64,000 bases of DNA from an uncultured Maribacter sp. (GTDB lineage: Bacteria; Bacteroidota; Bacteroidia; Flavobacteriales; Flavobacteriaceae): contig CANMKG010000012.1 in the NCBI GenBank assembly GCA_947498505.1, positions 18,924 to 82,923 on the forward strand. The letters are read 5' to 3'. The first letter of the stretch is position 1. The number at the start of each line of letters is the position of its first letter. The translations under genes and the position numbers were made by a program. This document shows positions 32,071-62,349 of the stretch, one piece after another. The notes beneath the pieces are model-generated. The model made no database searches. It saw only the letters and a program-made list of their open reading frames with translations, and was not told the origin of the DNA.

Positions 32071-32112
32071 TCCAAAGAAGTACTACTAATTATTACTACA
32101 AAACTATACTAC

Positions 32113-47318: not shown

Positions 47319-48758
47319 TTATTTTTTGTTTAAAAACCCCTTGGCTTTTACCTTTATTAAGTCTAATTCTTTAATTTTAAATAGTTTAATTAAAAAGTAA
47401 TAGATGCTCCCAGCCACTATTGGAGCAACCAATAATTTAATCAAATCGTTATCTAAGTAAAAAGTTATTATAAAAACACTAATCACCATTATTATACTTG
47501 AAATTATTATGGTTGATAAATCCTTTAATTGATTTAAAGGACCATATTTCATTATTTTTCCTGGATAGTAAGTGTTTATAAAGAAATGAACAGCTGTTGA
47601 GGCTAGTTCAGCTAGAGCTATAAATACTATACCATAGTTTAAAGCAACAATGAAAAAAACAACTCGCACAATTATTTTCAGATATTGTTGTCTTAATGCT
47701 AAATCTGTTCTTCCGATTGTGTATAACAAATTCACGTTTATGCCAGAAATAATTGTTATCAATCTTGCAACACAAAAAATTTGCAATATTGGAACAGCAA
47801 GAATCCATTTGTCTGTCAGCAAGTAAACAACTATTGGTTTAGACATGACGGCAATAAATAGGAAAAGAGGAATTACAAATAATGCTGTAGCTCTAATTAT
47901 GGTTCGAGTATGTTTAATTAAAATATCATGTTGATTTTGTACGCTCGATAAACCAGGTAATAAAACGCGATCAAAAATTGCATTTACAGTTGAGAAAATT
48001 ACATCTGAAAACTGTGTTCCTCTTGTGTAGTAACCCAAATCTTTTGCGCTAATAAATTTAGCAATAAATAATGAGTAAAAATTATTTACAATGACGTTAA
48101 GAAGGGAAGAAGCTAAAAGTTTAGAGCCAAAGGAAAACAAACTTTTAATTGAGGATTTAGAGAAAAGCCATTTTGGTTTCCACCTTAAAAAAAACCACAT
48201 AAATATTAATGTAGAAAACGATTTAATAATAGTTTGAAATACCAATGACCAGACACCATAGCCAGAATATGCTAAATATATAGCAACTCCACCAGACAAT
48301 AGCGTAGCTATTAAATTTATTTTCGTTAATGTTTTAAAATCTAATTCGATTGTGTATAATGTTGCAGGAACTGTAAAAAGAGCATTGGAAATAAGTGATA
48401 AGGCTAATACTCTAAGTAATATTGAAAGACTTTCTATTTCATAAAATTGAGCAACAAATGGAGCAAGTATCCAAATGATAATATAGCAGACAATACTTAT
48501 GATTATATTAAAAAAAAATACAGTTGAAATATCGTTTTCTGTTCTGTCCTGTTTCTGAATTAAGGCTTTGGTAAACCCACTGTCAATGAAAACTTGTGAA
48601 ACGACAATGAAAACTAGCAAAATACCAATAATTCCATATTCTTTTGGAGTTAAAATTCTTGCAAGTATTATGCCTAATACAAATTGAATAGCTTGTATAG
48701 AGATACGTTCGATGGCACTCCAAGCCATACCATTAAACATTTTATTTCCGAGTGACAT
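47319..48758 (-). CDS. wzx: Polysaccharide repeat-unit flippase (Wzx, MOP superfamily)
   Basis: It has about 12-14 TM helices. The N-terminus MSLGNKMFNGMAWSAIERISIQAIQFVLGIILARILTPKEYG is the typical Wzx/PST start, so I chose the ATG at 48758 rather than the track start at 48842. Confidence 0.8.
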   Translation of the reverse strand: MSLGNKMFNGMAWSAIERISIQAIQFVLGIILARILTPKEYGIIGILLVFIVVSQVFIDSGFTKALIQKQDRTENDISTVFFFNIIISIVCYIIIWILAPFVAQFYEIESLSILLRVLALSLISNALFTVPATLYTIELDFKTLTKINLIATLLSGGVAIYLAYSGYGVWSLVFQTIIKSFSTLIFMWFFLRWKPKWLFSKSSIKSLFSFGSKLLASSLLNVIVNNFYSLFIAKFISAKDLGYYTRGTQFSDVIFSTVNAIFDRVLLPGLSSVQNQHDILIKHTRTIIRATALFVIPLFLFIAVMSKPIVVYLLTDKWILAVPILQIFCVARLITIISGINVNLLYTIGRTDLALRQQYLKIIVRVVFFIVALNYGIVFIALAELASTAVHFFINTYYPGKIMKYGPLNQLKDLSTIIISSIIMVISVFIITFYLDNDLIKLLVAPIVAGSIYYFLIKLFKIKELDLIKVKAKGFLNKK

Positions 48759-48898
48759 TAAGGAATTTGTGTTACACTTAATTTTAAGGTTCAAATATCT
48801 TGAATAAAAACTAAATACACACTTAATTAGTTTAAAATACACTTAATCACGACTAACAAACGTGTTAACTCCTATTTTTAATATGCAAAAAATAAAAA

Positions 48899-51739
48899 TT
48901 AATTTGGTGGAGAGAAATTAACATTGCTCCAACTGCAATTTTCAAAAGAAACATCAAAACTACTATATGGTTCATATATTCCTCCAGTTTCAACATATAG
49001 TTTATTTCCATTGCTAAACGAGCACGTTTTAAAAAGAATATCTTCGGTTGGTGTATAGGTAACCGCTACAGTATTGAAATTTGAGAAGTTACAGTTAACA
49101 AAAGTGTTTCTTCTTGCCCATGCATTAAATTGTTCTCCATCACCCACACGCAAAACACTATTGGTGTCATTGATATTTACGCCGTCAAAAACATTATCGT
49201 ATCCGCAACTAACTTCATCTCTATCTCCTCCAGGTCCAACGTATCCATCATCGTTATCTAGCCAAGTGATAGCAGTCCATGTATTTTGAATGGTCATGTT
49301 TTTAATAATATTATTATTTGCACCATTAAAAATTGCCAACCTTGACTCCCATTGACCACTATTATTGCCATTTCCATAAATAAAACAACCTTCAATCGTG
49401 TTGTGTTTAACCCCTCCAAAATTAAGCTCAAAACTCGTCCTGTTTGCAGTACAGTTGTAGAATAGGTTATTTTCTGCTAAATCCTTCATAGTGAAACCAT
49501 GTCCACCATGTCCTAATTCTGGGTTTCTGTCAGCATAGCTGTTTTTTACAACCGAATGTTGGGTTCCACCTGTTATTAGAAAATAGTAATCTGTAGGGTT
49601 TGTTGTATTGTCTGAGTATACTTCACAATTGTTTACAACGGAGTAATCTGAGTCGAATAGTTTGATAGCTTCTGCATTAGCATTCAAAATAAAACAATTT
49701 TCAATTTTTGAGTTGTTTCCTCTTATTTCGATAGCAAAACCATCATACAGAGTTGAATTTGTTTGACTCCCGCTATTAGTGACAATAATGTTTTTCAATG
49801 TTGTGTTAGTAGCAGCGGATATAGAGTTAATACCTTTTGTATATCCTGTTATTTGGAAGTTTTCAATATGTATGTACTTATGATAAAGAGTAATTGCGTT
49901 ACCTGATGATGATGAGCTTAAAAGAGGCATCTTATTCGAATTTAGCGATTCTCCATAACTGAATGTTGAACCTTGGGAACTTGTAACATCACCTGGTATA
50001 CTAGAATATCCTATGAATTTAATTGGTTGAGAGCTTGTGCCATGGTTTCCAGAGATGATTTGCTGGTATCCGTAATTTCCTGATTTAACATATACAATGT
50101 CACCTGGTCTTGCTGTTTTAAAAGCATGTTCTAAACTCCATGAATTATTTTCAGATAGACCATCATTGAAAGAGTTGCCATTGGAAGTTACATAGTATCC
50201 GGGTAATGTATTTACATTTGGAGGGTTTATGGTTATGTTAATTGTAGATGTGTGGTTGAGGCCTTCATCATCATACACAGTTAACTGTACGTTATAATTT
50301 CCAGGATTAACAAAAGTATGTGATGGATTTTTGTTATCGGTGGTTGATCCATCATTAAAATCCCAAAAATAACGGGTAATTCCTTTGTCATCTGTAGAAT
50401 TGTTGCTTAAAAATTGTATTTCAGAAGGAGCTTCTCCACTTGTTGAAGAAGCCGTAATTGTTGAAACAGGGGCATTATTTGTCGAGCCTTCTACCGTTAT
50501 AACTACTGTTTTTTTATTTTCCAGCCCATGTTCATCTTTTACAGTCAATTCTACCTCATAAGAACCTTCATTAGAAAAAGAATGCGAGGGATTAGCTGTA
50601 TTGGCTGTACTTCCATCCTTAAAATCCCAAAAGTAGCTTACAATGGACGAGTCATCTGAAGATTTGTCGCCTATAAATTGCACCTCCAGAGGAAAATTTC
50701 CTGTTAGGGGTGAGGCGCTTAGGTTTGCAATTGGAGCTAAGTTATCTTCCTCTTTTGCTGTTATGATAACAAGGTCGGAATCCGTCACCCCGTTTATATC
50801 CGTAATGGTTAAAACTACTTCATAAACTCCAACATTATTAAAAACATGAGTAGGATTAGCAATACTGTCAATTATTGTATCGTTAAAGTCCCAAATGTAA
50901 CTTACGATACTATCAGAACTTGTTGAATTACTGCCTGTAAAAGAAACTTCAAGAGGAGCTTTGCCGCTAGTTAATGTTGCGTCAGCTATAGCAATTAGTT
51001 CATTTATTTCCTCACCAGTACCATCGATGTTATCTTCTTCTTCAGGAATAATTATTTCTGTATCCTTAGGAGCATCATATGTCACAATCAGTTTTGGGCC
51101 AATTTTAGAAGAATGTTCTTTAGAAGCAAAGGCTAAGTCATTTGCTCCTTCATGATTTAATACAAGGGATATTTTTTCTGAACTTATTTTTGTTATATCT
51201 AGATTAACCTCTTCTTTTGTACCTACCTTATATTCTTTTGATACGGAACCTAATTCCTCGTCTGTTTCAGGAATATTGTTGTTGGATATTTCATTTTCGG
51301 TCCAATTTGAGTCCTTTCCTTTGTAAATAGTTATTTTACCATTTCCATCATCTTTGTTAATCGTAAATTCTAGTTTAGCTTCTTTTATTATGCCTCCAAT
51401 GCTATCAATGGGGCTTAAATCAAACATTAAATAACTTGTTCTTTGGTTTTCTTCTAAACGAACAATATTTTGATTATAGATTAAACCGTTTTGAACATAA
51501 GCATCTTGTATAGTTCTAAAAGACGAGGTTCTTTGCTCAAGGCTATCAATAGGGTTCAGAATAGGTGAGGAGGGCTTAGTTGCTTCTGAGGTTTCAACTT
51601 TTTTAGGTTTTTCTTCTGATTCTTTGAGAACCGAATCTAGTAGTAAGTCTGAGTCTTTGCTACAAGATATTAGAACAGAAATAAAAACAAAACAAATAAA
51701 AAAAAACAGCAAGTAGATTTGTGTGGGACGAAATCTCAT
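48899..51739 (-). CDS. Lipoprotein: N-terminal DNRLRE/CBM96-like domain, three PKD domains, C-terminal right-handed parallel beta-helix domain (candidate polysaccharide lyase, hydrolase or C5-epimerase)
   Basis: 946 aa with lipobox LISC (Cys26) followed by SKDSD. The N-terminal domain contains DAYV...RTSYLMFDLSPID...AKLEF. Three WDF(N/K)DG PKD units span aa ~248-505. The C-terminal ~430 aa carry recurrent beta-helix turns (IENCF, VNNCEV, FYNCTA, IEGCFI, VNCNF). It is a paralogue of 51919..53961. Confidence 0.7.
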   Translation of the reverse strand: MRFRPTQIYLLFFFICFVFISVLISCSKDSDLLLDSVLKESEEKPKKVETSEATKPSSPILNPIDSLEQRTSSFRTIQDAYVQNGLIYNQNIVRLEENQRTSYLMFDLSPIDSIGGIIKEAKLEFTINKDDGNGKITIYKGKDSNWTENEISNNNIPETDEELGSVSKEYKVGTKEEVNLDITKISSEKISLVLNHEGANDLAFASKEHSSKIGPKLIVTYDAPKDTEIIIPEEEDNIDGTGEEINELIAIADATLTSGKAPLEVSFTGSNSTSSDSIVSYIWDFNDTIIDSIANPTHVFNNVGVYEVVLTITDINGVTDSDLVIITAKEEDNLAPIANLSASPLTGNFPLEVQFIGDKSSDDSSIVSYFWDFKDGSTANTANPSHSFSNEGSYEVELTVKDEHGLENKKTVVITVEGSTNNAPVSTITASSTSGEAPSEIQFLSNNSTDDKGITRYFWDFNDGSTTDNKNPSHTFVNPGNYNVQLTVYDDEGLNHTSTINITINPPNVNTLPGYYVTSNGNSFNDGLSENNSWSLEHAFKTARPGDIVYVKSGNYGYQQIISGNHGTSSQPIKFIGYSSIPGDVTSSQGSTFSYGESLNSNKMPLLSSSSSGNAITLYHKYIHIENFQITGYTKGINSISAATNTTLKNIIVTNSGSQTNSTLYDGFAIEIRGNNSKIENCFILNANAEAIKLFDSDYSVVNNCEVYSDNTTNPTDYYFLITGGTQHSVVKNSYADRNPELGHGGHGFTMKDLAENNLFYNCTANRTSFELNFGGVKHNTIEGCFIYGNGNNSGQWESRLAIFNGANNNIIKNMTIQNTWTAITWLDNDDGYVGPGGDRDEVSCGYDNVFDGVNINDTNSVLRVGDGEQFNAWARRNTFVNCNFSNFNTVAVTYTPTEDILFKTCSFSNGNKLYVETGGIYEPYSSFDVSFENCSWSNVNFSPPN

Positions 51740-51818
51740 GAACCTTCAAAATTTTAGAACTCCAAATAATATTCTGCAATTATAATGATTCTATGAAATT
51801 TTGGATGATATAACTTTT

Positions 51819-51850
51819 TTTTTCGATGAAATGCACTTTATTGACACAAT
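51819..51850. promoter_or_regulatory. Recurring intergenic motif, copy A (TTTTTCGATGAAATGCACTTTATTGACACAAT)
   Basis: It matches copy B1 (54051-54082) at 25 of 32 positions, including an exact 13-mer TTTTTCGATGAAA. It shares the exact strings TCGATGAAATGCA and ACACAAT with copy B2. Confidence 0.5.
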
Positions 51851-51859
51851 AAAGTGCAT
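51831..51859. repeat. Perfect 13-bp inverted repeat with a 3-nt spacer (ATGCACTTTATTG-ACA-CAATAAAGTGCAT)
   Basis: Read directly from the sequence. It lies in the 179-bp gap between the two beta-helix paralogues, 92 nt upstream of the start at 51739. Confidence 0.9.
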
Positions 51860-51918
51860 CGAAGCTTTTTGTTTAACGAAGCAATTTAGTTCGTTAATTA
51901 ATATTTATTGTTAAAAAT

Positions 51919-53961
51919 TTAATTGCTTTCAGATGGTGGTTGAAAATTGTTATTGCTCCATGTACAATTTTTAAAGGCAACATCAAATTTACTATAAGGC
52001 TTGTATTTGCCATCAGCTTCAACATAGGCTATATTTCCATTTGAAAAAGAAGAGTTTTCAAAAACAATATCTTCAGTTGGAGTATAAGTAACTGCAATGG
52101 TATTAAAATCAGAAATTTCGCAATTTTTAAAAGTGTTTCTTCTTGCCCAAGAGTAAAACTGTTCTCTTTCTCCAACCCTAAGAGCACTATTTGTTTTTGT
52201 GATTTTTAATCCGTCGAAAGTATTGTCATATCCACAACTCAATTCATCTCTATCTCCACCAGGACCAACATATCCATCTTCATAATCTATCCAAACAATG
52301 GCTGTCCAGGTGTTTTCAATTGTCATGTTTTTAATTAGGTTGTTATTGGCTCCGTTAAAAATACCTAATCTTGATTCCCATTGCCCTGTTTGCGTTCCAT
52401 TTCCGTAAATAAAACAATTTTCGAAAACATTGTTTTTTACTCCTGAGAAGTTCAACTCAAAACTTGTTTTTCTTGCAGTACAGTTAATGAACAAATTGTT
52501 TTCACCTAAATCTTTAATTGTAAATCCATGTCCTCCATGGCTAAGTGAAGCTTCTCTTTCAGCGTATGAATTTTCAATAACGCTGTTGTTTGTCCCTCCA
52601 GTTAGTAAAAAGTAATAGTCAGTAGGGTTATTCGGGTTATTAGCATAAACCGAACAGTTGTTAACTCTTGAGTTATCAGAATTAAAAAGTTTGATAGCTT
52701 CGGCTGTAGCATTTAACACAAAACAATTCTCTATTAAGGCATTTTCACTACCATTAAGAGCAATTCCCCATCCATCATAGGCATTGTATTCATTTTGATT
52801 TCCAAGATTAATAGCGACAATATTTTTTAGTACTAGGTTGTTCCCAGTTGATTCAATTCCTTTACTGTAACCAGTAATCTGAAAATTTTCAAGGTGTATA
52901 TGGTTCTCAAATGTTTTGATACTAGTGGAATTTGAATAATTATTGGATTTTAATAAAGGCATAAAATCAGAATTTAAATTGTCTCCAATTTTAAATGTTG
53001 AGCCATTTTCACTTGAGATATCACCTGGAGTATTTTGATATCCAATAAATTTTATTGGATTGTTTAAGGAGCCTGAATTGTCAACAGTTAGCTCCACGGC
53101 GCCATAGTCTCCTGCTTTTATATATACTATGTCCCCTGCCTTTGCTGTTTCAAAAGCGTATTGTATATTCCACGCAGTTGCCTCTGTTAAACCATCGTTA
53201 TTTGCACTTCCGTTTGTTGTTACAAAATAACCATCAGTATCTGTAGGGGTAGGCGTTGGTTCTGGTTCGGGTGTTGGTTCTGGTTCAGGTGTTGGTTCTG
53301 GTTCAGGAATTTCTAGTTCAGGAGAGTCTTTATCAGCTAAGTAAGAAACTATAAGCTTTGCTCCTTTATTGTTTGAATTTTCTTTTGAAGCAAATGCTAA
53401 GTCATCACTTCCATTATGGGTAAGTACTAAACTTGTTTTTTCATTGTTTAACTCGGCAGCTTCAAGTGCTAGTTGGTTAGCAAGCCCAACTTTATAATCT
53501 TTGCTAATGGACCCTAGCAGCGTTTCTTTTTCAGGAGAGTTATTGTCGGTTAGATTTTCTTCAGACCAATCATTGGAAGAACCTTTATGCACACTGATGG
53601 TTCCAGAGCCTTCGTCGCTGTCAACGTTGAATTCTAAGACAGCACTTGTAATTTCTCCATCAATAGGACTTAGATCAAACATTAAATAACTTGTTCTAAA
53701 CCCTTCTTGTAGTCTTACAATATTTTTATTGTGCCCGTCTGAATCTTGAATATAGGCATCATTAATCGGAGAAAAGGAAAAGGAACGTTCTACTAGGTTG
53801 ACGTTACTTTTTTCTTCGTTACTTTTTTCTTCAATTGACGTTTCGGAATTTTTAAGAGCAGAATCTAAGAAAATATCTGAGTCTTTACTACATGAGATAA
53901 GGCTAAATAGGGCAATAAAAAATACGGTCAACATGTAGGTTTTAGTCGTTGTTCTTTTCAT
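51919..53961 (-). CDS. Lipoprotein: N-terminal DNRLRE/CBM96-like domain, (PEPEPT)n linker, C-terminal right-handed parallel beta-helix domain; paralogue of 48899..51739
   Basis: 680 aa with lipobox LISC (Cys24) followed by SKDSD. It shares identical strings with its neighbour: RTSYLMFDLSPID, NPTDYYFL, GHGGHGFT, GQWESRL, IFNGANNN, DGYVGPGGDRDE, WARRNTF and AVTYTPTEDI. Confidence 0.7.
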   Translation of the reverse strand: MKRTTTKTYMLTVFFIALFSLISCSKDSDIFLDSALKNSETSIEEKSNEEKSNVNLVERSFSFSPINDAYIQDSDGHNKNIVRLQEGFRTSYLMFDLSPIDGEITSAVLEFNVDSDEGSGTISVHKGSSNDWSEENLTDNNSPEKETLLGSISKDYKVGLANQLALEAAELNNEKTSLVLTHNGSDDLAFASKENSNNKGAKLIVSYLADKDSPELEIPEPEPTPEPEPTPEPEPTPTPTDTDGYFVTTNGSANNDGLTEATAWNIQYAFETAKAGDIVYIKAGDYGAVELTVDNSGSLNNPIKFIGYQNTPGDISSENGSTFKIGDNLNSDFMPLLKSNNYSNSTSIKTFENHIHLENFQITGYSKGIESTGNNLVLKNIVAINLGNQNEYNAYDGWGIALNGSENALIENCFVLNATAEAIKLFNSDNSRVNNCSVYANNPNNPTDYYFLLTGGTNNSVIENSYAEREASLSHGGHGFTIKDLGENNLFINCTARKTSFELNFSGVKNNVFENCFIYGNGTQTGQWESRLGIFNGANNNLIKNMTIENTWTAIVWIDYEDGYVGPGGDRDELSCGYDNTFDGLKITKTNSALRVGEREQFYSWARRNTFKNCEISDFNTIAVTYTPTEDIVFENSSFSNGNIAYVEADGKYKPYSKFDVAFKNCTWSNNNFQPPSESN
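53255..53308. repeat. Three tandem copies of an 18-bp unit (GTTGGTTCTGGTTCRGGT) encoding the PEPEPT linker
   Basis: The three copies are at 53255-53272, 53273-53290 and 53291-53308. They differ at 1-2 positions. The repeat is in-frame (6 codons per unit) on the minus strand. Confidence 0.9.
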
Positions 53962-54050
53962 AAGTAGGTTTTTGGCTAACGGGTAAATTAGCTTTAATTT
54001 GGGATTATAAAAATATTAAAAAAAACAACATTTTAGATAAAAGCACCTGC

Positions 54051-54082
54051 TTTTTCGATGAAAGGTCGTTTATTAATACCAT
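54051..54082. promoter_or_regulatory. Recurring intergenic motif, copy B1 (TTTTTCGATGAAAGGTCGTTTATTAATACCAT)
   Basis: See copy A. It lies 90 nt upstream of the start at 53961, in the same orientation as copy A. Confidence 0.45.
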
Positions 54083-54213
54083 TAGCAATTGGGGTGTCGC
54101 CATATACAATCCTAAATTATTTTAAGTTTAATTTTTTTAAATGTGTTTCTTGTTCTACGCTATAGAATCATATTTGGATTATTTATTTTTTTCTTTTAAC
54201 ACAAATTGGCAAA

Positions 54214-54327: not shown

Positions 54328-55608
54328 TTATAGGCTGCCGTTTGAAGTTCCTTTTTTTAGAACTCCTTTTACATCGTATATAATGCCTTTTTTATTTAAT
54401 AGCGTTTTTAATTTTAACCCAGAAAACTTTTCGTGAGGTACAGCGAGGATTATAGCATCAAATGTATTATTCGGAAGTTTTGAAGTGATTTCTAAATTGT
54501 GTTCTTTTTTTACGTCTATCGGATTTGCCAAAGGGTCGCATATAGTTATTTTGGTTCCATAACCATTTAAATTTTCAATAATATCAACAACTTTAGTATT
54601 TCTAACATCTGGGCAATTTTCTTTAAAAGTTATTCCTAAAATTAAAATGTTAGATCCTTTTATTTTTAATTCGTTTTGGACCATTAATTTTATTATTTCA
54701 GTGGAAACGTATTTACCCATGCTGTCATTTATTCTTCTTCCTGCAAGAATAATTTCAGGGTGATATCCATATTCTTGAGCTTTTTGAGCTAAATAATAAG
54801 GGTCTACACCTATACAATGGCCTCCTACTAAACCTGGTTTAAACGGAAGAAAGTTCCATTTTGTTCCAGCGGCTTCTAATACCTGATTGGTATCTATATT
54901 GAGTAGGTTGAAAATTTTAGAAAGTTCATTTACAAAAGCAATGTTAATATCTCTTTGTGAATTTTCTATTACTTTGGCGGCTTCTGCTACTTTAATTGAA
55001 GGAGCCAAGTGAGTGCCAGCAGTAATGACTGAGTTATATAATGTATCAACTTTTTTTCCAATTTCTGGTGTTGAACCGGATGTGACTTTAAGAATTTTAT
55101 CAACGGTATGTTCTTTGTCTCCAGGATTTATTCTTTCGGGAGAATAGCCAACGAAAAAATCAATATTGAACTTTAGTTTACTTACTTTTTCAAGGACGGG
55201 GACACATTCTTCTTCGGTTGCTCCAGGGTATACCGTAGACTCGTATATAACAATATCTTCTTTTTTTAACACTTTGCCAACTGTTTCGCTAGCTCTGTAT
55301 AATGGTTTTAAATCTGGCTTATTGTGTTTGTCTGTTGGGGTAGGGACTGTAATGATGTAGTAATTACAGTTTTTTAACTCGACGATATCGTTCGAATAAA
55401 ATAAGCCTTTTGATGAAGTGTTTTTTTGTTTTGAAGATTTTTCAAGATTCTGCTTACTAACCTCAAGTGTATTGTCAATATTTTTTTTCAACTGCTGTAT
55501 TCTGTTTTTATTGATATCAAAACCAACAACCGCATATTTAGAGGCAAATAGGTTGGCTAAAGGTAGCCCAACATAACCAAGTCCGATAATTCCAATTTTG
55601 ATATCCAT
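54328..55608 (-). CDS. UDP-N-acetyl-hexosamine 6-dehydrogenase (TviB/WbpO/VipA-type nucleotide-sugar dehydrogenase)
   Basis: 426 aa with N-terminal IGIIGLGYVGLPLA and the catalytic-Cys region GLVGGHCIGVDPYY. Its size and its pairing with a TviC/WbpP-like epimerase fit this type. Confidence 0.82.
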   Translation of the reverse strand: MDIKIGIIGLGYVGLPLANLFASKYAVVGFDINKNRIQQLKKNIDNTLEVSKQNLEKSSKQKNTSSKGLFYSNDIVELKNCNYYIITVPTPTDKHNKPDLKPLYRASETVGKVLKKEDIVIYESTVYPGATEEECVPVLEKVSKLKFNIDFFVGYSPERINPGDKEHTVDKILKVTSGSTPEIGKKVDTLYNSVITAGTHLAPSIKVAEAAKVIENSQRDINIAFVNELSKIFNLLNIDTNQVLEAAGTKWNFLPFKPGLVGGHCIGVDPYYLAQKAQEYGYHPEIILAGRRINDSMGKYVSTEIIKLMVQNELKIKGSNILILGITFKENCPDVRNTKVVDIIENLNGYGTKITICDPLANPIDVKKEHNLEITSKLPNNTFDAIILAVPHEKFSGLKLKTLLNKKGIIYDVKGVLKKGTSNGSL

Positions 55609-55633
55609 AAATATATTTTTAGCTGAAAACGGT

Positions 55634-56629
55634 TTAGTTTTTTAAGTTTTCCCAGTACCATTCGACTGCTTCTATTAATCCTGATTTAAAATCATATTTC
55701 GGATTGTAATTTAGTAATTCTTTTGCCTTAGCGATAGAAGCTAATGAGTGCGGAACATCCCCGACACGAACACTTCCGTAGTTAATATTTATATCTTCTA
55801 TTTTTTTATCAAACTTAGATAGGTGTCTTTTTAACAATTCTACCAGTTCGTTAAGTGATGTGCGCTCTCCATGGGCAATATTATATACGGTGTTAATCGC
55901 CTTTGGATTTTTTGTTATTAAGGCCTTGATATTTGCTTCCACAACATTTTCAATATATGTAAAGTCTCTAGAGAACGTTCCGTCACCATTAATACAAGGA
56001 GATTCGTGGTTTATGAGTTGAGTTACAAATTTGGGAATAACAGCTGCATAAGCACCATTTGGGTTTTGAAACCTTCCAAAAACGTTAAAATATCTTAACC
56101 CAATAGTTTCAATACCATAAGTGTTGCTGAAAACATCAGCATATAACTCATTAACGTATTTAGTTATAGCGTAAGGAGATATTGGTTTTCCAATTTTTTC
56201 CTCAATCTTGGGGAGTGTTTTTGAATCTCCATATGTGGAAGAACTTGCGGCGTATACAAAACGTTTTATTCCAGTTTCTTTAGATGCTACAAGCATGTTT
56301 AGAAAACCAGAAACATTTACTTCATTACTGGTTATGGGGTTACTAATGGATCTTGGTACAGAGCCCAAAGCTGCTTGATGTAAAACATAATCAACTTTTT
56401 CACAAGCTTCAAAGCATGTGGTGTAATTTCTTATGTCACCCTTTATGAATTCAAAATTAACATGATTGGATATTTCTTGCAGGTTTTCAATATTTCCTGT
56501 CGAAAGGTTGTCTAGGCAAATAACTTTGTTACCATTGTTTATCAATGTTTTACACAAGTTAGAGCCAATGAAGCCAGCTCCTCCAGTAACTAAAACAGAG
56601 TATTTTGAATTTAAGAAATTACTTTTCAT
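55634..56629 (-). CDS. SDR-family UDP-HexNAc(A) 4-epimerase (TviC/WbpP-like)
   Basis: 331 aa with VTGGAGFIGSN, the catalytic Y-x3-K (SPYAITKYV) and NVFGRFQNPNGAYAAVIPKF, typical of WbpP/TviC. Confidence 0.8.
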   Translation of the reverse strand: MKSNFLNSKYSVLVTGGAGFIGSNLCKTLINNGNKVICLDNLSTGNIENLQEISNHVNFEFIKGDIRNYTTCFEACEKVDYVLHQAALGSVPRSISNPITSNEVNVSGFLNMLVASKETGIKRFVYAASSSTYGDSKTLPKIEEKIGKPISPYAITKYVNELYADVFSNTYGIETIGLRYFNVFGRFQNPNGAYAAVIPKFVTQLINHESPCINGDGTFSRDFTYIENVVEANIKALITKNPKAINTVYNIAHGERTSLNELVELLKRHLSKFDKKIEDININYGSVRVGDVPHSLASIAKAKELLNYNPKYDFKSGLIEAVEWYWENLKN

Positions 56630-56715
56630 AATTTAGATATATAACTCGTAAATTGAAATTTTTCAAAAATAGGTATAGTTAATTTGTAAATTAAGTTAAC
56701 GTTGAAGTTTTGTTC

Positions 56716-56762
56716 AAAAAAAAACTTTCATTGATAATAAAAAGTATTGATCAATGAAAGTT
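56716..56762 (-). terminator. Strong rho-independent terminator downstream of ugd
   Basis: This is a perfect 13-bp stem: AACTTTCATTGAT (56723-56735) pairs with ATCAATGAAAGTT (56750-56762), with a 14-nt loop. On the minus strand the hairpin is followed by a U-run, seen as the plus-strand A-run at 56716-56722. Confidence 0.8.
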
Positions 56763-56786
56763 GCTATTTTAAGGTAAACAGAGTCT

Positions 56787-58184
56787 TTAAGACTGTCCTA
56801 TTTTGTAATATTTAAATCCAATACCTTCAATGTTTTCTTTATCTAAGATTCTTCTTCCATCAAACAAAAAAGCTGGTCTCAACATTTTTTCGTAAACGTT
56901 GTTCCAATCATAAGCTTTAAATTCATCCCATTCTGTTAAAATTGCTACAGCGTGGGCATTTTCCGCCGCTTCGATAGGGTTATTTACAACTTTAACTAGC
57001 TTTCTGTTTTCTTCGGGAGATCGCGTGTTTAAGTAGTCTAAGTCAGCATATATTGTTTCTGCAGATACTTTTGGGTCATAAATAACTATTTCCGCTCTTT
57101 CATCAAGTAATGCATCAGCAACATAAATTGCGGCAGATTCTCTAGTGTCGTTAGTATCTTTTTTGAATGCCCAACCGTAAAAAGCAATTTTTTTACCAGA
57201 AACAGTATTATATAAAGTAGTAATTATATTTTCTGCGAAACGCCTTTTTTGATAATCATTCATCAGAATTACTTGTTCCCAATAGTCAGCAACTTCTGGT
57301 AAACCAAAACTTTTAGCTATATATACCAGGTTAAGAATGTCTTTTTGAAAACATGATCCACCAAACCCTACAGAAGAGTTTAGAAATTTTGAACCTATTC
57401 TACTATCATATCCAATTGCTCTTGAAACTTCATCAACATTCGCATCTGTTTTTTCACATAATGCAGATATAGAATTAATAGAAGAAACTCTTTGAGCTAA
57501 GAAAGCATTGGCTACAAGCTTAGAAAGTTCAGAAGACCATACATTTGTCTGAAGTATTCTTTCTTTCGGAAGCCATTGTTCGTAGATGCTACTTAAGGTA
57601 TCTTTGGCTATTTGTCCAGTAGGGGTATCATCTCCACCAATCAACACCCTGTCAGCATTTAGTAAATCTTCAACAGCTGTACCTTCGGCAAGAAATTCAG
57701 GATTTGATAGAATTTCAAATTTAACGCCATTTCCAGTGTTGTGTAAAATACTTTTAATGGCTTGCGCAGTTCTAACAGGTAAAGTAGATTTTTCAACGAC
57801 AATTTTGTCCGTTTTTGCTACCTTAGCTATGTTACGAGCACAAAGTTCTATATATTTTAAATCTGCAGCTTGTCCTTTTCCTTTTCCGTAAGTTTTTGTA
57901 GGAGTATTTACAGATATAAAAACGACTTCTGCTTCGTCAATTGCCTTGTCCACCTCAGTAGAGAAAAAAAGGTTTTTACCCCTAGTTTCGGCAACAATTT
58001 CTTTTAACCCAGGTTCATAAATAGGAAGATTGTCTAAGTCAGAGTCATTCCATTGTGCAATTCTTTTTTCATTAATATCAACAACAGTAACCTCTATATC
58101 TGGACATTGTTTAGCTATAACAGACATTGTAGGGCCTCCTACATATCCAGCACCAATACAACATATTTTATTTACTTTTCTCAT
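56787..58184 (-). CDS. ugd: UDP-glucose 6-dehydrogenase (long, eukaryote-like type)
   Basis: 465 aa with [12 protein letters not shown] and the catalytic [10 protein letters not shown]. Length and conservation match the long form of Ugd. Confidence 0.9.
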
Positions 58185-58474: not shown

Positions 58475-59608
58475 TTGACAACTAAATCCAAAATTTGGCT
58501 TTCATCTCCTCACATGGGACATAATGAAGAGCATTATGTGAAGGAAGCTTTTGATACAAATTGGGTTGCTCCATTGGGACCCAACGTAACTTTATTTGAA
58601 GAAGCAATAACTAAATATGTTGGAGGTAATGTACATGTAGCTGCGCTAAGTGCAGGCACAGCGGCAATTCATTTAGCTCTTAAAATGTTAAATGTTTCTC
58701 ATGGAGATGAAGTAATTTGCCAAAGCTTTACTTTTTCAGCGTCTGCAAATCCCATAATGTATTTGGGAGCCACTCCTATTTTTGTGGATAGTGAAAGAGA
58801 TACATGGAATATATCTCCTGAGCTCCTTAAAGAAGCTATAGAGGATAGAATGGCTAAAGGGAAAAAACCAAAAGCAATTGTTGGTGTACACTTATATGGT
58901 ATGCCTTATAAAATAGATGAAATAAAAGCAGTAGCAGATGAATACGGTATTCCAATTGTAGAGGATAGTGCGGAAGCACTTGGTAGTAAATATAAGGGAG
59001 TACAATGTAGCAGTTTCGGTGATATAGGAATTTTATCTTTTAATGGGAATAAAATTATAACCACTTCAGGTGGTGGCGCTTTGGTTTCTAAAAAAGAAGA
59101 GTATAAGAAAAAAGCAATATTTTTAGCAACTCAAGCGAGAGATGATGCACCTCATTATCAGCATTCTAATGTTGGATTTAATTACAGGATGAGTAATGTT
59201 TTGGCTGGAATTGGAAGAGGACAAATGGAGGTTTTGGATGAAAGAGTTGCATCAAGAAGAGCTAATTATGAATTTTATGTTAATAAATTAGGTAAATTAG
59301 AGGGGGTAGAATTTGTTAAAGAGCCTGAAGGGTTTTATTCTAACAGATGGCTTACGTGCATATTAACAGATTCTTTTCAAGTTAGAGAAAATATTAGATT
59401 AAGGCTGCAAGAAGAAAATATTGAATCTAGACCATTGTGGAAACCAATGCACTTGCAACCGATTTTTGAAAAATACCCTAACTATTCAGATGGAACGTCT
59501 TTAGATTTATTTGAAAGAGGATTATGTCTACCAAGTGGTTCAAATTTAACCACTGAGGATTTAGAAAGAATAACCACCACAATCATTAAAGAACTCACCA
59601 ATGATTAA
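58475..59608 (+). CDS. DegT/DnrJ/EryC1/StrS-family PLP-dependent sugar aminotransferase (PglE/WcfR-like, UDP-4-keto-6-deoxy-HexNAc 4-aminotransferase)
   Basis: 377 aa with a TTG start. IWLSSPHMG..E..YV.EAFDTNWVAPLGPNV is a typical N-terminus. The PLP-lysine region is SFNGNKIITTSGGGAL. It is coupled to the downstream dehydratase by an 8-nt overlap. Confidence 0.85.
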   Translation: MTTKSKIWLSSPHMGHNEEHYVKEAFDTNWVAPLGPNVTLFEEAITKYVGGNVHVAALSAGTAAIHLALKMLNVSHGDEVICQSFTFSASANPIMYLGATPIFVDSERDTWNISPELLKEAIEDRMAKGKKPKAIVGVHLYGMPYKIDEIKAVADEYGIPIVEDSAEALGSKYKGVQCSSFGDIGILSFNGNKIITTSGGGALVSKKEEYKKKAIFLATQARDDAPHYQHSNVGFNYRMSNVLAGIGRGQMEVLDERVASRRANYEFYVNKLGKLEGVEFVKEPEGFYSNRWLTCILTDSFQVRENIRLRLQEENIESRPLWKPMHLQPIFEKYPNYSDGTSLDLFERGLCLPSGSNLTTEDLERITTTIIKELTND

Positions 59609-61535
59609 AAATTACTTAGTAAACAATGCCCATAGATACGCGTCTAAATGGCTAGTATTAGGGATAGATGTTTTTTTAATAATTTTTGCATTTGTATTGT
59701 CGTACTTAATAAGGTTTAATTTAACCTTGAATTTTGATATTGACAAACTATTGATACAATTGCCAATAGTAGCTACAATAGCAATAATTTCTTTTTTAAT
59801 AACCGGTTCGTATAAAGGAGTAGTAAGACATACAGGGGTTAGGGATGTTTATAACATTTTTAATGCAGTATGTTTGTCTAGTATCATAAGCATATTCATG
59901 GTTATTGGTAATAGAGAATTCGGATTAATAGATAGCTTTACGATTCCTTTATCAATAATAATAACTCATAGTTTAATCGGTTTTATTGCTTTAACAGCTG
60001 CGAGATATGTTTTTAAGACATTGTATTTTAATGTTGTTAAAAAGTTTAAATTAACCAAAAATGTGTTAATCTATGGAGCAGGAGAATCAGGTATTTTAAC
60101 TTATAATGCAATGACCAATCAGACTAGCAGTAGTTCAAGGGTAATTGGTTATATTGATGATGATTTAAAAAAAGTAGGGAAAAACATTAACGGTATACCT
60201 GTATATAGCAAACAAGATTTATCAGAATATTTTATAGCTAATAGAGATGTTTCTGAAATTATTGTTTCTATTAATAATGTGGAAAGCAGTAAACTAAGAG
60301 AGTTGGTAGAGAGTTTAGTTGAGTTTCCTGTAAAAGTTAAAATTGTACCTCCTGTTGAGAGCTGGATTAATGGAGAACTTAAGGTTTCTCAGATTAAACA
60401 GGTACAAATCGAAGATTTACTTAATCGTGTGCCAATAGATATTAAAAAATCTAAAATCTCGGAGGAATTAAAAGAGAAAGTGGTAATGGTTACTGGTGGA
60501 GCGGGTTCTATTGGAAGTGAAATAGTTAGGCAGATAGCTAATTATGACTATAAATCTTTAATTGTTATAGATCAAGCGGAATCAGCGTTGTATGATTTGC
60601 AACAAGAATTGAAGCAAAATGGCTTTCATAATTTTATTCCTATAGTTGCGGATATTAGGGATAAGAATAGGATGAATACTTTTTTTCAAGAATATAAGCC
60701 AACAACAGTGTTTCATGCAGCAGCATATAAACATGTACCCTTAATGGAATACAATTCTTATGAGGCAATCAAAATTAATGTTATTGGCACAAAAATAGTT
60801 GTTGATTTAGCACTTGCTCACAATGTGGAGAAATTTGTGTTTGTTTCCACGGATAAAGCGGTGAACCCCACTAACGTTATGGGAGCCACTAAACGAATTG
60901 CAGAGATGTATATTAGTAGTATGCAGCAAGAAAATAAAACTAAATTTATTACTACTAGATTTGGTAATGTTTTAGGTTCTAATGGATCAGTAATTCCTTT
61001 GTTTAAAAAACAAATTGAAAAAGGAGGTCCTTTAACCGTAACTCATAAAGATATTACAAGATATTTTATGACAATTCCCGAGGCATCTCAACTTGTGTTA
61101 GAAGCAGGAGCAATGGGGCAGGGAGGTGAAATATTTATTTTTGATATGGGTGAATCTGTCAAGATTTTCGATTTAGCCAAAAATATGATTAGACTATCTG
61201 GGCTTAAATACCCTGAAGATATTGATATTAAAGTTACTGGATTGCGCCCAGGAGAAAAGTTGTATGAGGAATTACTAGCAAATGGAGAGAATACGCTACC
61301 AACTTATCATAAGAAAATTTTAATCGGAAAAACAAGAGAGCTGGACTATTCCTTAGTCAGATCTAAAATTGACGAGTTATGTGTGTCCAACATGTTTTTT
61401 AATGGAAACACAGTAGCTTTAATGAAAGAAATTGTTCCAGAATATGTTTCTAACAATTCTGATTTATGTGAGTTTGACAAAAAGGAAAGAAATACAGTTA
61501 AAAACAAAGAAGATAAGAAGATATTGCAGTCATAA
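59601..61535 (+). CDS. Membrane-bound UDP-N-acetylglucosamine 4,6-dehydratase (CapD/PglF/WbpM family)
   Basis: 644 aa with four N-terminal TM helices. It has two Rossmann regions (IYGAGESG; VTGGAGSIGSE), plus VSTDKAVNPTNVMGATKR and TRFGNVLGS. Confidence 0.88.
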   Translation: MIKNYLVNNAHRYASKWLVLGIDVFLIIFAFVLSYLIRFNLTLNFDIDKLLIQLPIVATIAIISFLITGSYKGVVRHTGVRDVYNIFNAVCLSSIISIFMVIGNREFGLIDSFTIPLSIIITHSLIGFIALTAARYVFKTLYFNVVKKFKLTKNVLIYGAGESGILTYNAMTNQTSSSSRVIGYIDDDLKKVGKNINGIPVYSKQDLSEYFIANRDVSEIIVSINNVESSKLRELVESLVEFPVKVKIVPPVESWINGELKVSQIKQVQIEDLLNRVPIDIKKSKISEELKEKVVMVTGGAGSIGSEIVRQIANYDYKSLIVIDQAESALYDLQQELKQNGFHNFIPIVADIRDKNRMNTFFQEYKPTTVFHAAAYKHVPLMEYNSYEAIKINVIGTKIVVDLALAHNVEKFVFVSTDKAVNPTNVMGATKRIAEMYISSMQQENKTKFITTRFGNVLGSNGSVIPLFKKQIEKGGPLTVTHKDITRYFMTIPEASQLVLEAGAMGQGGEIFIFDMGESVKIFDLAKNMIRLSGLKYPEDIDIKVTGLRPGEKLYEELLANGENTLPTYHKKILIGKTRELDYSLVRSKIDELCVSNMFFNGNTVALMKEIVPEYVSNNSDLCEFDKKERNTVKNKEDKKILQS

Positions 61536-61569
61536 TTTTTTATTAATATTGCAGTCAAAACCATTAATT

Positions 61570-62349
61570 ATGTTCAGAAAAAGACGTTCTTTAAGTTTAT
61601 CAATGTTAGCACTTGTTATAGGTGTTCTTTTAATGTCCTCATGTGCTTCTAAAAAGGATGTTGTTTATTTTCAAAATACTGGTGATTTTGAAACACTAGT
61701 AGATAAAAATAGTTTTACACCTAAGTTTAAAGTGGATGATTTGGTAAACATTTATGTTTCTACTTTAGATAATGAGGCAAGTGTTCCTTTTAATTTGTTT
61801 AGAGGAGCTTCTGAAGGAGGAATAGCTCCAGAACAAGTTGATTATTTAGTAGATAAAGAAGGGGAAATTGATTTTCCTGTTGTTGGAAAAGTTAAAATAG
61901 CTGGTCTATCATCTGAAGAAGTAAGAATCTTACTAAGAGAAAAACTATCGGATTATTTAAAGAATCCAATAATAAACATTAGACTTAAAAACTTTACTGT
62001 AACTATATTAGGAGAGGTAAATAGACCGGGTACATATCCTGTAAATGGTGAGCGAATTACAGTTTTGGAAGCTTTAGGTTTGGCGGGAGATTTAACCATA
62101 AAAGGTATGAGAGAGAATGTTTTGGTAATAAGAGATTTTGACGGTACTAAAATTTATACTCGTATTAATTTAACCAATAAGCAAGCATTAAGTTCTCCAG
62201 TTTATTATTTAACGCAGAATGATGTTGTGTATGTTGAGCCAAATCAATCAGCTGTTACAGCATCAAGTCTAGATAACAGGGCAACGATTGCAATTTCTAT
62301 TGCCTCAGTATTAATTACTTCCTCAGTACTGTTATTAACAAGAAATTAA
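61570..62349 (+). CDS. wza: Polysaccharide export outer-membrane lipoprotein (Wza family)
   Basis: The lipoprotein signal is LLMSSCAS. It has a Poly_export motif region (FKVDDLVNIYV) and an SLBB domain. I chose the ATG at 61570 (MFRKRRSLSL...), because the track start at 61432 would overlap the dehydratase gene by 104 nt. Confidence 0.85.
   Translation: MFRKRRSLSLSMLALVIGVLLMSSCASKKDVVYFQNTGDFETLVDKNSFTPKFKVDDLVNIYVSTLDNEASVPFNLFRGASEGGIAPEQVDYLVDKEGEIDFPVVGKVKIAGLSSEEVRILLREKLSDYLKNPIINIRLKNFTVTILGEVNRPGTYPVNGERITVLEALGLAGDLTIKGMRENVLVIRDFDGTKIYTRINLTNKQALSSPVYYLTQNDVVYVEPNQSAVTASSLDNRATIAISIASVLITSSVLLLTRN

Follow-up and report, generated by a model that had tools for sequence, protein, structure and literature searches.

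In a 64,000-nucleotide stretch of DNA from an uncultured Maribacter sp. (hereafter the window), two adjacent open reading frames on the (-) strand encode the paralogous proteins S (680 aa; 51919..53961) and L (946 aa; 48899..51739), exactly as a preliminary description had reported. S is annotated in the source assembly as a 671-aa protein starting at Met10, and L is identical to P0003 of GCA_947498585.1. Pfam assignments also agree with the described placement of the pair between a flippase and uronic-acid genes. Downstream lies a Wzx-type flippase gene (47319..48842, (-); Polysacc_synt_3, 301.8 bits), followed by glycosyltransferase genes to about 29781, and upstream are genes for a UDP-glucose 6-dehydrogenase (465 aa), an NAD-dependent epimerase (331 aa) and a second UDP-sugar 6-dehydrogenase (426 aa; together 54328..58184, (-)). 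A divergent arm (58475..62349, (+); Pfam) encodes a DegT aminotransferase, a CapD-like dehydratase and a Wza-type exporter.

The similarity between S and L far exceeds chance, with 63% identity over 435 aa in the C-terminal region (BLASTP, E = 0), close to the two-thirds estimated earlier by eye, and 47% identity over 227 aa in the N-terminal region (E = 2e-56). Strings common to both proteins are LISCSKDSD, RTSYLMFDLSPID (the identical 13-aa string already noted in the N-terminal domain), NPTDYYFL, GQWESRL, DGYVGPGGDRDE, WARRNTF and AVTYTPTEDI. One block of the earlier list needs amending, as GHGGHGFT is exact in L only and the common form is HGGHGFT. Each protein consists of a lipoprotein signal, a CBM96-like head, a spacer and a C-terminal beta-helix. 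In S the spacer is a Pro/Glu/Thr linker, (PEPEPT)n (aa 214-240; 53242..53322, (-)), which is encoded by an 18-nt tandem repeat (direct repeat D7) and modelled with pLDDT < 50, the full-length AlphaFold2 model of S having a mean pLDDT of 90.3. In L, three PKD domains form a stalk joining head to helix (about aa 240-505; 50225..51022, (-); Pfam PKD_4 190.9 bits and PKD 122.8 bits, three stretches each). The linker and the PKD domains, both overlooked in the preliminary description, account for the whole length difference between S and L. Neither protein has a match to the T9SS C-terminal domain model PF18962 (Por_Secre_tail) at E <= 0.1, as had been described.

Export from the cytoplasm is predicted for both proteins from a signal peptide with the shared lipobox L-I-S-C. 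In S (53869..53961, (-)) the lipobox ends in Cys24 and is followed by S-K-D-S-D-I-F, and in L (51641..51739, (-)) it ends in Cys26 and is followed by S-K-D-S-D-L-L, corresponding to the consensus C-S-K-D-S-D-L-L, the conservation of which is restricted to the capsule-locus clade. The preliminary description likened the stretch after the cysteine to a surface-export signal. Compared with the optimum tested in Flavobacteriaceae, C-X-K-(D/E)2-X (PMC5080379), this likeness holds for K at +3 and D at +4 and breaks down at +5, where the window proteins have S instead of D/E, with a D following at +6. The pattern C-x-[KQ]-[DE]-x-[DE] is matched by 38 of the 50 capsule-clade proteins, and strong conservation of K at +3 and of acidic residues at +4 and +6 is confined to this clade. 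S and L are probably outer-membrane lipoproteins exposed at the cell surface.

Proteins of this kind might instead face the periplasm as housekeeping depolymerases that clear misdirected polymer or free the Wza/Wzc path, a role proposed for AlgL, VexL and RbmB. Although VexL and RbmB do act in the periplasm and the export signal is imperfect relative to the tested optimum, we consider a periplasmic role quite unlikely given the clade-restricted conservation at +3, +4 and +6 and the presence of CBM heads, PKD stalks and Pro-rich linkers, which are typical of extended surface proteins. Moreover, some distant relatives outside capsule loci carry T9SS C-terminal domains and are therefore predicted to be exported beyond the outer membrane.

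The heads of S (aa 62-205; 53347..53778, (-)) and L (aa 73-220; 51080..51523, (-)) match the CBM96 model PF24517 at 55.4 and 51.4 bits, respectively (cut-off 26 bits), which substantiates the DNRLRE/CBM96-like domain proposed earlier, and L alone also exceeds the cut-off (34 bits) of the NCBIfam model NF033679 (DNRLRE_dom; 47 bits). Foldseek comparisons relate the predicted beta-sandwich of the S head to a chondroitin-sulfate-binding CBM (8wab; TMt 0.72) and to the alginate-binding CBM96 of Dp0100 (7vbo; TMt 0.61, rmsd 3.9, 23% identity), a module typically joined to polyuronate lyases. Internal alginate chains are the ligand of the founding CBM96, and alginate, hyaluronate and pectate lyases contain DNRLRE domains (PMC9971899). 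However, the CBM96 of Dp0100 has a Lys-rich groove, whereas the S and L heads are net acidic (pI 4.5-4.9, and 4.4-4.9 across all domains of the two proteins). Since the alignment with 7vbo spans residues 51-115 only, the binding residues Lys10, 22, 25, 27, 31, Arg36 and Tyr159 of TM6-N4 are unaligned. Family matches and modelled structure support a resemblance of the heads to modules that bind acidic polysaccharides.

The C-terminal domain of S (aa 244-680; 51922..53232, (-)) is modelled as a parallel beta-helix of right-handed turn (helix-only model, pLDDT 96.2, pTM 0.94), and the corresponding domain of L occupies aa 514-946 (48902..50200, (-)). Both proteins score above the cut-off of the Pfam Beta_helix model (30 and 36 bits; cut-off 25.9). 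The helix family is small, with 796 representatives among 1.84 billion, and is distant from solved structures, the best matches in a PDB fold search reaching TM <= 0.62 and identity <= 16%. The nearest folds are those of the carbohydrate-active beta-helix enzymes PL6, PL9, PL31, AlgE, RbmB and GH28, most of which act on polyuronates. This structure search favours the enzyme-type helix of the preliminary description, albeit by matches to generic CAZyme folds, and an adhesin beta-helix, which that description had named as a competing outcome, was rejected because the nearest folds are carbohydrate-active enzymes instead.

The helix domain has an N-terminal cap motif in common with PL9 (Pel9A, 1ru4; 5olq), YYV..G.D.N.G....A....A......GD.V.IKAG.Y, and a search of the helix-family profile against PDB sequences aligned Pel9A at this cap only (profile positions 242-306, E = 2.9e-7). 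PL9 folds give a TM of 0.47-0.51 to the S helix. The Pel9A-like_beta_helix model PF22842 has precomputed matches on most homologues, and a search of one copy of Pfam gave no match to it for the window helix. PL9 lyases have four Asp calcium ligands and a catalytic Lys in their groove. Membership of PL9 by sequence was rejected, with a core alignment of -9.3 bits and nothing found in a single-sequence search. GH28 polygalacturonase, which has the ordered motifs NTD, G/QDD, G/SHG and RIK, was also rejected, as only the SHG/GHG string was found, NTD, DD and RIK are absent in S and L, and the fold TM is 0.26-0.42. Another beta-helix protein, WcaM, belongs to the colanic-acid locus; no WcaM model was among the NCBIfam matches of S or L at E <= 0.1.

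Conservation in the family alignment suggests a candidate active site in S, D448-Y449 ... R469 ... H475-G-G-H478-G-F-T-I-K483 (52513..52620, (-)), and the residues D, Y, R, H, H and K are kept in L. Across 94 family members from both clades, D448, Y449, R469, H475, H478 and K483 are 87-100% conserved. D562 is conserved among them too, and the conserved acids of the helix family include D448, E502, D559 and D562. In the DSSP register of the model, the core-block residues occupy the start of the first strand and the preceding loop in consecutive coils, and judging from this strand register they may share one face of the helix, clustered in a groove. The conserved residues fail to tell a lyase from a hydrolase or an epimerase. 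We regard it as unlikely that the helix is a C5-epimerase of the AlgG/AlgE kind, or another modifier of the exported chain that does not cut, even though no other solved structures combine TM and rmsd as favourably as the A-modules of AlgE6 and AlgE4 (TMq 0.55, TMt 0.62, rmsd 4.9) and the locus encodes uronic acid synthesis. Tyr, His, Asp, Arg and Lys are indeed the kinds of residue that epimerases use, and proton abstraction is common to epimerases and lyases. Against an epimerase, identity to the AlgE modules is 11-13%, a regular-expression search found neither of the AlgE/AlgG signatures YG(F/I)DPH(D/E) and DPHD in S or L, and for a phage tail, in which the helix also occurs (see below), a binder or depolymerase would plainly be useful and an epimerase would not.

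The position of the helix gene is retained well beyond the window. It sits between wzx and the dehydrogenase/epimerase genes in members of Maribacter, Muriicola, Robiginitalea and Arenibacter and in several assemblies, where wza, wzc, capD and degT form a divergent arm. The related loci L003, L004 and L005 have the divergent arrangement of the window, and related loci also have the dehydrogenase/epimerase genes ahead of the helix gene. The slot is kept in at least 10 named genera and further assemblies of marine Flavobacteriaceae. A genome scan detected capsule-core genes within 10 kb in 30 of 34 motif-bearing loci, compared with 7 of 44 loci without the lipoprotein motif, and a UDP-sugar 6-dehydrogenase gene in 26 of the 34. 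The suggested tie to capsule loci is thereby borne out for homologues that share the lipoprotein signal. The helix lipoprotein is a conserved accessory of the Wzx/Wzy and Wza/Wzc capsule/EPS locus in marine Flavobacteriaceae, which contradicts the earlier view of the duplicated pair as a non-standard element of Wzx/Wzy loci; the gene is often single, pairing not being the rule.

A further suggestion of the preliminary description, that the targets are foreign algal or bacterial uronic polysaccharides, finds no support in this genomic setting. Enzymes for such polymers, used in nutrition or competition and placed in the capsule locus by chance, would fit with the occurrence of CBM96 modules in alginate lyases, with the specialisation of marine Flavobacteriaceae in polysaccharide degradation and with the distant relatives found outside glycan-synthesis loci. 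However, the pair has no neighbouring SusC/SusD, transporter or sugar-catabolism genes and there is no PUL context, whereas the slot between dehydrogenase and Wzx is kept across genera and helix type co-varies within the locus, making a foreign substrate very improbable.

The helix domain has a homologue in phage tails. A tblastn search of 50,697 phage records matched only the Cellulophaga baltica phages phi4:1 (34%, E = 5e-30) and phi17:2 (31%, E = 2e-22), and the helix-only model of S superimposes on a virion structural protein of phi17:2 with a TMq of 0.88 (rmsd 3.0, 27% identity). In phi4:1 the protein is gp048, which is MS/MS-verified in virions, is encoded among tail genes, and shares 57% identity over 522 aa with a Maribacter lipoprotein of a verified polysaccharide locus. 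PHROG 36353 (phrog_36353) matches the S helix with E = 4.7e-28 (query 5-437 on profile 3-472 of 944) and the L helix with E = 2.8e-20, the shared portion being the N-terminal half of that family only. The likeness is one of true homology over the entire helix domain, but the phage protein has its helix at the N-terminus, lacks a signal peptide and CBM, and is fused to a tail-protein module (PHROGs 22767, 21199). No capsule-locus homologue from Cellulophaga baltica that closely resembles the phage protein turned up in a search. This link between a capsule-locus helix and a phage tail protein is new. Beta-helix proteins of phage tails typically bind and depolymerise capsule or O-antigen, and the homology strengthens the case for S and L acting on their own capsule; the phage tail protein could bind yet not cleave.

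Binding without cleavage might also apply to the host proteins. Compared with the window helices, gp048 keeps D-Y, R469 and H475 and carries R for H478 and Q for K483, which would suit a non-catalytic tether or lectin that holds the capsule on the outer membrane, its helix having been borrowed by the phage as a receptor-binding module, for which binding alone is needed. Wzi has a capsule-holding role in enterobacteria, and the lipid anchor, carbohydrate-binding head, spacer and conserved locus place of S and L would all serve such a function. We nevertheless think it improbable that S and L are tethers, as the best fold matches are enzymes, and D-Y, R, H..H....K and D562 are near-invariant both in the capsule clade and in distant secreted relatives outside glycan loci. 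Such a near-invariant polar block is more typical of an active site, since a specificity surface should vary with the polymer.

Based on locus linkage, the phage link, the fold, the head, the polar block, the export signal, the match of helix type to locus and the precedents of VexL and RbmB, we lean towards S and L being depolymerases tethered to the cell surface that act, probably as lyases, on the acidic capsule of their own cell. The lipid anchor and flexible tether would fix each protein to the outer membrane, the CBM96-like head would hold an acidic polysaccharide chain, and the helix domain, set off from the head by the short Pro/Glu/Thr linker (S) or the three PKD domains (L), would cut the capsular polymer endolytically. 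Cutting would most likely proceed by beta-elimination at a uronic acid residue, in which the invariant Arg or Lys could act as base while the nearby His, Tyr and acids, possibly with Ca2+, handle the carboxylate. Cleavage would leave the capsule trimmed, thinned or released, and the two stalk lengths may place the enzyme at two depths of the capsule layer.

There is ample documentation of own-polymer-cutting enzymes for synthase-dependent and ABC-transporter-dependent exopolysaccharides, but to our knowledge none for such enzymes as a conserved component of Wzx/Wzy capsule loci, nor in Bacteroidota. Like AlgL, VexL, RbmB, PslG and PelA, which are exported from the cytoplasm, S and L are encoded inside a conserved biosynthesis locus. 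Two of these precedents are beta-helix lyases that cleave their own uronic-acid polymer, VexL in a capsule locus (PMC6003464) and RbmB in an EPS locus (PMC12993940). VexL, the Vi-antigen lyase of Vi capsule loci of Burkholderiales (PDB 6FI2; PMC6003464), shares the right-handed beta-helix with S and L and makes endolytic cuts in its N-acetylated polyuronic acid, Arg and Lys residues being essential. However, it is clearly homologous to pectate lyases, is soluble and periplasmic, comes from an ABC-transporter-type locus, and has no CBM, stalk or lipid anchor; its groove is electropositive while the S and L domains are net acidic, and no sequence relationship between VexL and the window proteins was detectable. 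RbmB, the VPS lyase of Vibrio cholerae (PDB 9ozd, 9ozl; PMC12993940), is encoded within a biofilm polysaccharide cluster and cleaves an acidic, amino-acid-decorated polymer. It is among the fold matches to the S helix, weakly so (TM 0.25-0.41, 12-14% identity), and differs in being probably periplasmic, single-domain and tied to biofilm dispersal, outside a Bacteroidota Wzx/Wzy locus. The net acidic domains, the restriction of PL9 likeness to the cap and the periplasmic location of the VexL and RbmB precedents count against the proposed reading of S and L.

If S and L do cut their own capsule, the helix family, which has no characterised member, would be a candidate new family of polysaccharide-degrading enzymes. 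It would also provide a direct way into the control and shedding of capsular material by abundant marine Flavobacteriaceae, material that adds to dissolved and gel-like organic carbon at sea. With 57% identity between them, the capsule-locus lipoprotein and the phage tail protein concretely exemplify a probable capsule-recognition domain common to host and phage, with possible use in predicting the receptors of flavobacterial phages.

The two parts of the proteins appear to have had different histories. S- and L-type heads fall into orthologous groups across genomes, so the short/long pair is old, whereas helix type tracks the locus and not the paralog. The helix domains within a genome usually resemble one another and have therefore been reassorted, as would be expected if both enzymes must fit one polymer. 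Such discordant histories of head and helix suggest modular exchange of specificity. More tentatively, the helix may be a capsule-type-specific cutting cassette common to host and phage, with one or two host copies, on two stalk lengths, that match the cell's own capsule and are swapped or homogenised when the capsule type changes, and with phages having captured the cassette for their tail spikes. Were this the case, the host gene would predict phage receptor specificity, and the cassette may shape the capsular material that marine Flavobacteriaceae shed into seawater.

Similarity between the paralogs extends into non-coding DNA. A segment upstream of S (54030..54082, (-)) has a copy upstream of L at 51798-51850 with 72% identity (direct repeat D5). 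The 12-mer GCATTTCATCGA occurs exactly at 54218-54229 and 51823-51834, upstream of S and L, respectively; with up to two mismatches allowed it has 10 matches against 4.7 expected, and these two are its only exact copies.

The two genes are neighbouring open reading frames on the minus strand and lie exactly where the preliminary description placed them, at 48899–51739 (946 aa) and 51919–53961 (680 aa). Their paralogy is borne out by 63% identity over 435 residues at the C-terminus (E = 0) and 47% over 227 residues at the N-terminus (E = 2e-56), and the sequence strings quoted in its favour occur in both proteins, with the exception of GHGGHGFT, which is exact in the 946-aa protein only, the common string being HGGHGFT. 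Pfam confirms a CBM96 head and a right-handed Beta_helix region (the helix) in both proteins and, again as described, a T9SS tail in neither; NCBIfam DNRLRE_dom is over its cut-off in the 946-aa protein. The two-domain layout stands, although it overlooked the source of the length difference, namely three PKD domains (about aa 240–505) that separate head from helix in the 946-aa protein and a (PEPEPT)n linker, coded by an 18-nt repeat, in the 680-aa protein. T9SS cargo and members of the WcaM family were rejected as identities for the pair by Pfam/NCBIfam profile searches. In the source assembly the short gene is annotated from Met10 (671 aa), and its exact 680-aa sequence is therefore missing from a collection of 15 billion proteins; the 680-aa start adds a basic n-region (MKRTTTKTY) that would suit a signal peptide.

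Based on the evidence assembled below, we consider it somewhat probable that these are surface-tethered lipoproteins whose helix cleaves the cell's own exported polymer. A lipid anchor and a flexible tether would be followed by the CBM96-like head, which would hold the polysaccharide chain, and a spacer of one of two lengths would connect the head to the helix. Cleavage, probably by β-elimination at a uronic acid, would set the thickness of the capsule or release polymer. Action on the own polymer is the best-supported step of this reading, and lyase chemistry the least. The closest functional precedents, by analogy, are VexL (PMC6003464) and RbmB (PMC12993940), β-helix lyases encoded in a capsule and an EPS locus, respectively, each of which cuts its own acidic polymer. 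However, the Maribacter proteins belong to an unrelated sequence family, are encoded in a Bacteroidota Wzx/Wzy locus, carry a lipid anchor with a probable surface-export signal as well as a CBM96 head and PKD stalk, and form a conserved pair of two stalk lengths with a phage tail homologue.

The pair sits within a long minus-strand operon and, as had been reported, between uronic-acid genes and the flippase, the order being UDP-glucose dehydrogenase, an epimerase, a second UDP-sugar 6-dehydrogenase, the two lipoproteins and Wzx. After Wzx follow GT1 glycosyltransferases, a 398-aa protein without a Pfam match and FnlA/B/C-like genes, and the operon ends with a small initiating sugar transferase, a GT2 and then ATP-grasp, HAD, FemAB-like and GNAT-like genes. 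A divergent arm on the plus strand encodes a DegT aminotransferase, a CapD-like dehydratase and a Wza-type exporter. The locus is of the Wzx/Wzy plus Wza/Wzc type, for an acidic polysaccharide which, judged from gene content, probably contains uronic acids and N-acetylated deoxy-amino sugars. The ATP-grasp enzyme, HAD hydrolase and FemAB-like and GNAT-like proteins at the distal end (29781–33721, minus) hint at amino-acid decoration of the polysaccharide; in VPS, a glycine amide on a uronic acid is needed for recognition by RbmB (PMC12993940). A YdjC-like gene (carbohydrate deacetylase family) lies on the opposite strand amid this operon (41703–42470, plus).

The helix family is small, since an exhaustive search of 1.84 billion representatives returned only 796 proteins at E <= 1e-3 and 213 at E <= 1e-30. 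Among 5.8 billion proteins we found 123 relatives, in which short (CBM96–helix) and long (PKD–helix) forms occur repeatedly on one contig; those with a named source belong to Maribacter, Arenibacter, Muriicola, Robiginitalea, Zobellia, Cytophaga and an unclassified Flavobacteriaceae strain. Maribacter algarum, Muriicola, Robiginitalea, Arenibacter, one further assembly and a metagenome contig share a common slot for these genes, after dehydrogenase and epimerase genes and ahead of Wzx. We scored 78 distinct loci, from one genome per species, for homologues of the window's capsule genes. Capsule-core genes lay within 10 kb in 30 of the 34 loci whose helix protein has the lipoprotein motif (one of the four exceptions being a 7-kb contig) and in 7 of the 44 without it, several of these seven probably being start-codon miscalls (Fisher p = 9e-11, with loci counted without regard to phylogeny). 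A UDP-sugar 6-dehydrogenase was present in 26 of the motif-bearing loci and two helix genes in 13. It had been held that homologues lying outside glycan loci as a rule would argue against a capsule role; given 30 of 34 loci near capsule genes, this objection fails for the lipoprotein clade. In distant relatives (29–37% identity) from Saprospiraceae, Bacteroidales, Desulfobulbaceae and other groups, the helix directly follows an ordinary signal peptide; some bear a T9SS tail, and their surroundings are free of capsule genes. A literature search found no study of the helix family or of β-helix lipoproteins in flavobacterial capsule loci.

Two further features of related loci concern their polymers. 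The capsule locus L004 has, amid its glycosyltransferase genes, one for a heparinase II/III-like protein (18992–20866; PF16889, PF07940), a possible second polymer-acting enzyme of that locus. PAPS synthesis genes and sulfotransferases occur in the Muriicola and Robiginitalea helix-gene loci (L002, 3728–9445 and 22287–22928; L003, 19699–20337), from which some of these capsules are probably sulfated.

The mature N-terminus of the capsule-locus clade, C-S-K-D-S-D-L-L, shows striking conservation, with 38 of 50 clade proteins matching C-x-[KQ]-[DE]-x-[DE]. This signal is kept even where the next domain differs, whether CBM96, Big_9 or none. The optimum tested for surface export in Capnocytophaga, also of the Flavobacteriaceae, is C-X-K-(D/E)2-X (PMC5080379), with which the pair's motif shares K at +3 and D at +4 but differs in S at +5. 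Given this partial match, which we count against the proposed mechanism, the lipoproteins are likely to be surface-exposed. The imperfect motif would also suit a depolymerase with a housekeeping role in the periplasm, like VexL, RbmB or AlgL, an alternative that we regard as improbable beside the conservation of the signal across the clade.

The link of the capsule-locus helix family to a phage tail is new here. Among predicted viral structures, one match stood far above the rest, a ‘structural protein’ of Cellulophaga phage phi17:2 (E = 2.6e-24, TM-score by query length 0.88, rmsd 3.0, 27% identity), and tblastn against 50,697 phage records hit only the Cellulophaga baltica phages phi4:1 (34%, E = 5e-30) and phi17:2 (31%, E = 2e-22). 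The phi4:1 protein, gp048, has 932 aa, is MS/MS-verified in virions and is encoded near an annotated pectate lyase, a tail protein, two structural proteins and a tail fiber. Within the family it is nearest to an SCSKDSDLL lipoprotein of 668 aa from an uncultured Maribacter (57% identity over 522 aa). The gene of this lipoprotein has no phage genes around it and belongs to a polysaccharide locus (GT2, dehydratase, ATP-grasp, acetyltransferase, Wzy, Wzx and GT1). Taken together, the structural match, the tblastn matches and this identity to a capsule-locus lipoprotein establish recent common ancestry of the lipoprotein and phage tail domains. With the phage helix domain as query, just 19 matches were found among 5.8 billion proteins, Maribacter family proteins on top; we found no close Cellulophaga baltica host gene, the nearest cellular relatives being those of Maribacter.

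Phage tail proteins with a β-helix typically serve to recognise capsule or O-antigen and to cut it. By analogy, no other indirect evidence speaks as strongly as the phage homology for an action of the host proteins on the host's own surface polysaccharide. Degradation of foreign polysaccharides, with which a carbohydrate-binding head would also be compatible, is very unlikely in the light of the capsule-locus setting. Within gp048 (L084, 5995–8793), residues 1–525 form the host-like helix and 529–931 match the tail-protein PHROGs 22767 and 21199, so that the protein is a chimera; its second half has an additional weak Beta_helix match. It adjoins the annotated ‘pectate lyase’ gp051, and phi4:1 may carry several polysaccharide-directed tail proteins. 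A literature search found no study of gp048 function. IMG/VR relatives (L085–L088), which are candidate phages, have 30–32% identity. The Peptidase_S74 intramolecular-chaperone domain is typical of phage tail spikes and fibres; one distant relative of the phage helix domain (P0267, 678 aa) has such a domain, which hints at more phage-borne family members.

The full-length model of the 680-aa protein (mean pLDDT 90.3) has disordered tethers at residues 25–53 and 224–240. In Foldseek comparisons of the model, the head resembled the chondroitin-sulfate-binding module 8wab (TM-score by target length 0.72) and the alginate-binding CBM96 7vbo (0.61); the founding CBM96 binds internal alginate chains, and DNRLRE domains are found on alginate, hyaluronate and pectate lyases (PMC9971899). 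Foldseek searches with the full-length model gave low TM-scores, inflated by the two-domain geometry, and were repeated with a helix-only model (pLDDT 96.2, pTM 0.94). The fold matches of the helix were generic (PL6, GH136, PL9, PL31, GH87, GH28, AlgE epimerases and RbmB; TM <= 0.62, identity <= 16%), with no adhesins or autotransporters among the top ones. The helix alone matched no PDB sequence at E <= 10 and the family profile reached PL9 enzymes at the N-terminal cap only, and therefore an assignment to a known PL or GH family could not be made. Identity with GH28 was rejected on the absence of its signature motifs.

Across 94 members from both clades, an Asn ladder is invariant, a polar block of D448, Y449, R469, H475, H478 and K483 (numbering of the 680-aa protein) is invariant or nearly so, and D562 is kept in 91–100%; E502 is conserved within the capsule clade only. 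Phage gp048 retains D-Y, R469 and H475, with H478 replaced by R and K483 by Q. In the strand register of our model, the polar-block residues of three or four consecutive coils open the first strand or belong to its preceding loop. Active sites of β-helix lyases and hydrolases are found in just these places, and the block would lie at the usual active site. A non-catalytic tether is unlikely in view of the near-invariance of the block across both clades and of fold matches that are enzymes. The residue set would be compatible with a lyase, with Arg/Lys acting as the base and acidic residues dealing with Ca2+ or protons, and may also serve a hydrolase or an epimerase. We dropped an argument that a single conserved carboxylate excludes a hydrolase, since a count at a lower threshold shows D562, D559, E502 and E421 to be fairly well conserved. 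A polymer-level epimerase or modifier would suit these residues and the uronic-acid genes, yet AlgE/AlgG identity was rejected because the signature motif is absent, and we hold this alternative to be rather unlikely. That all domains are net acidic counts against the proposed cleavage of the own polymer.

In ten genomes with a short/long pair, heads (51080–51523 and 53347–53778 in the window) and helices (48902–50200 and 51922–53232) have discordant histories. Heads are 51–69% identical between short proteins of different genomes and 47–62% between long ones, whereas short and long heads of one genome share 34–53%. Across genomes, short CBM96 heads group as orthologues, and so do long ones; the duplication therefore predates the compared genera. 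Helix pairs of one genome are 56–66% identical in seven of the ten genomes, and on average only 43–55% identical to orthologues elsewhere, so that the two are as a rule each other's nearest relatives and the helices have been reassorted or homogenised relative to the heads, possibly through gene conversion or cassette replacement (related loci L008, L010, L011, L014, L016, L017, L018, L020 and L022). The tree contains about three helix types, each common to both paralogs of a locus; the cultured relative Maribacter algarum has the type seen in the window. That helix type goes with the locus and not with the paralog is as expected if both enzymes must fit one polymer.

About 50 nt of upstream non-coding DNA was copied along with the gene (51798–51850 and 54030–54082, 72% identity), and both upstream regions contain an exact GCATTTCATCGA (51823–51834 and 54218–54229, minus); these may represent an element of a common promoter or 5' leader. 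At 51833–51857 (minus), 62 nt past the stop of the 680-aa gene, the sequence GCACTTTATTG-tgt-CAATAAAGTGC makes up a perfect 11-bp hairpin. A terminator scan of the intergenic DNA called no terminator between the genes, passing over this hairpin because it is followed by an A-run and not a T-run. Sigma-70-type promoter matches were near chance, the model being ill-suited to Bacteroidota; the Bacteroidota −7 motif TAnnTTTG occurred at chance frequency and was absent from both upstream regions, and Rfam had no match in 48500–54700. In loci that are otherwise tightly packed, the first helix gene is consistently preceded by a non-coding gap of ~350–650 bp (window, 53962–54327; related loci L002, 9446–10000; L003, 9416–10000; L004, 9481–10000; L005, 9361–10000), which suggests that the lipoprotein genes may be regulated separately.
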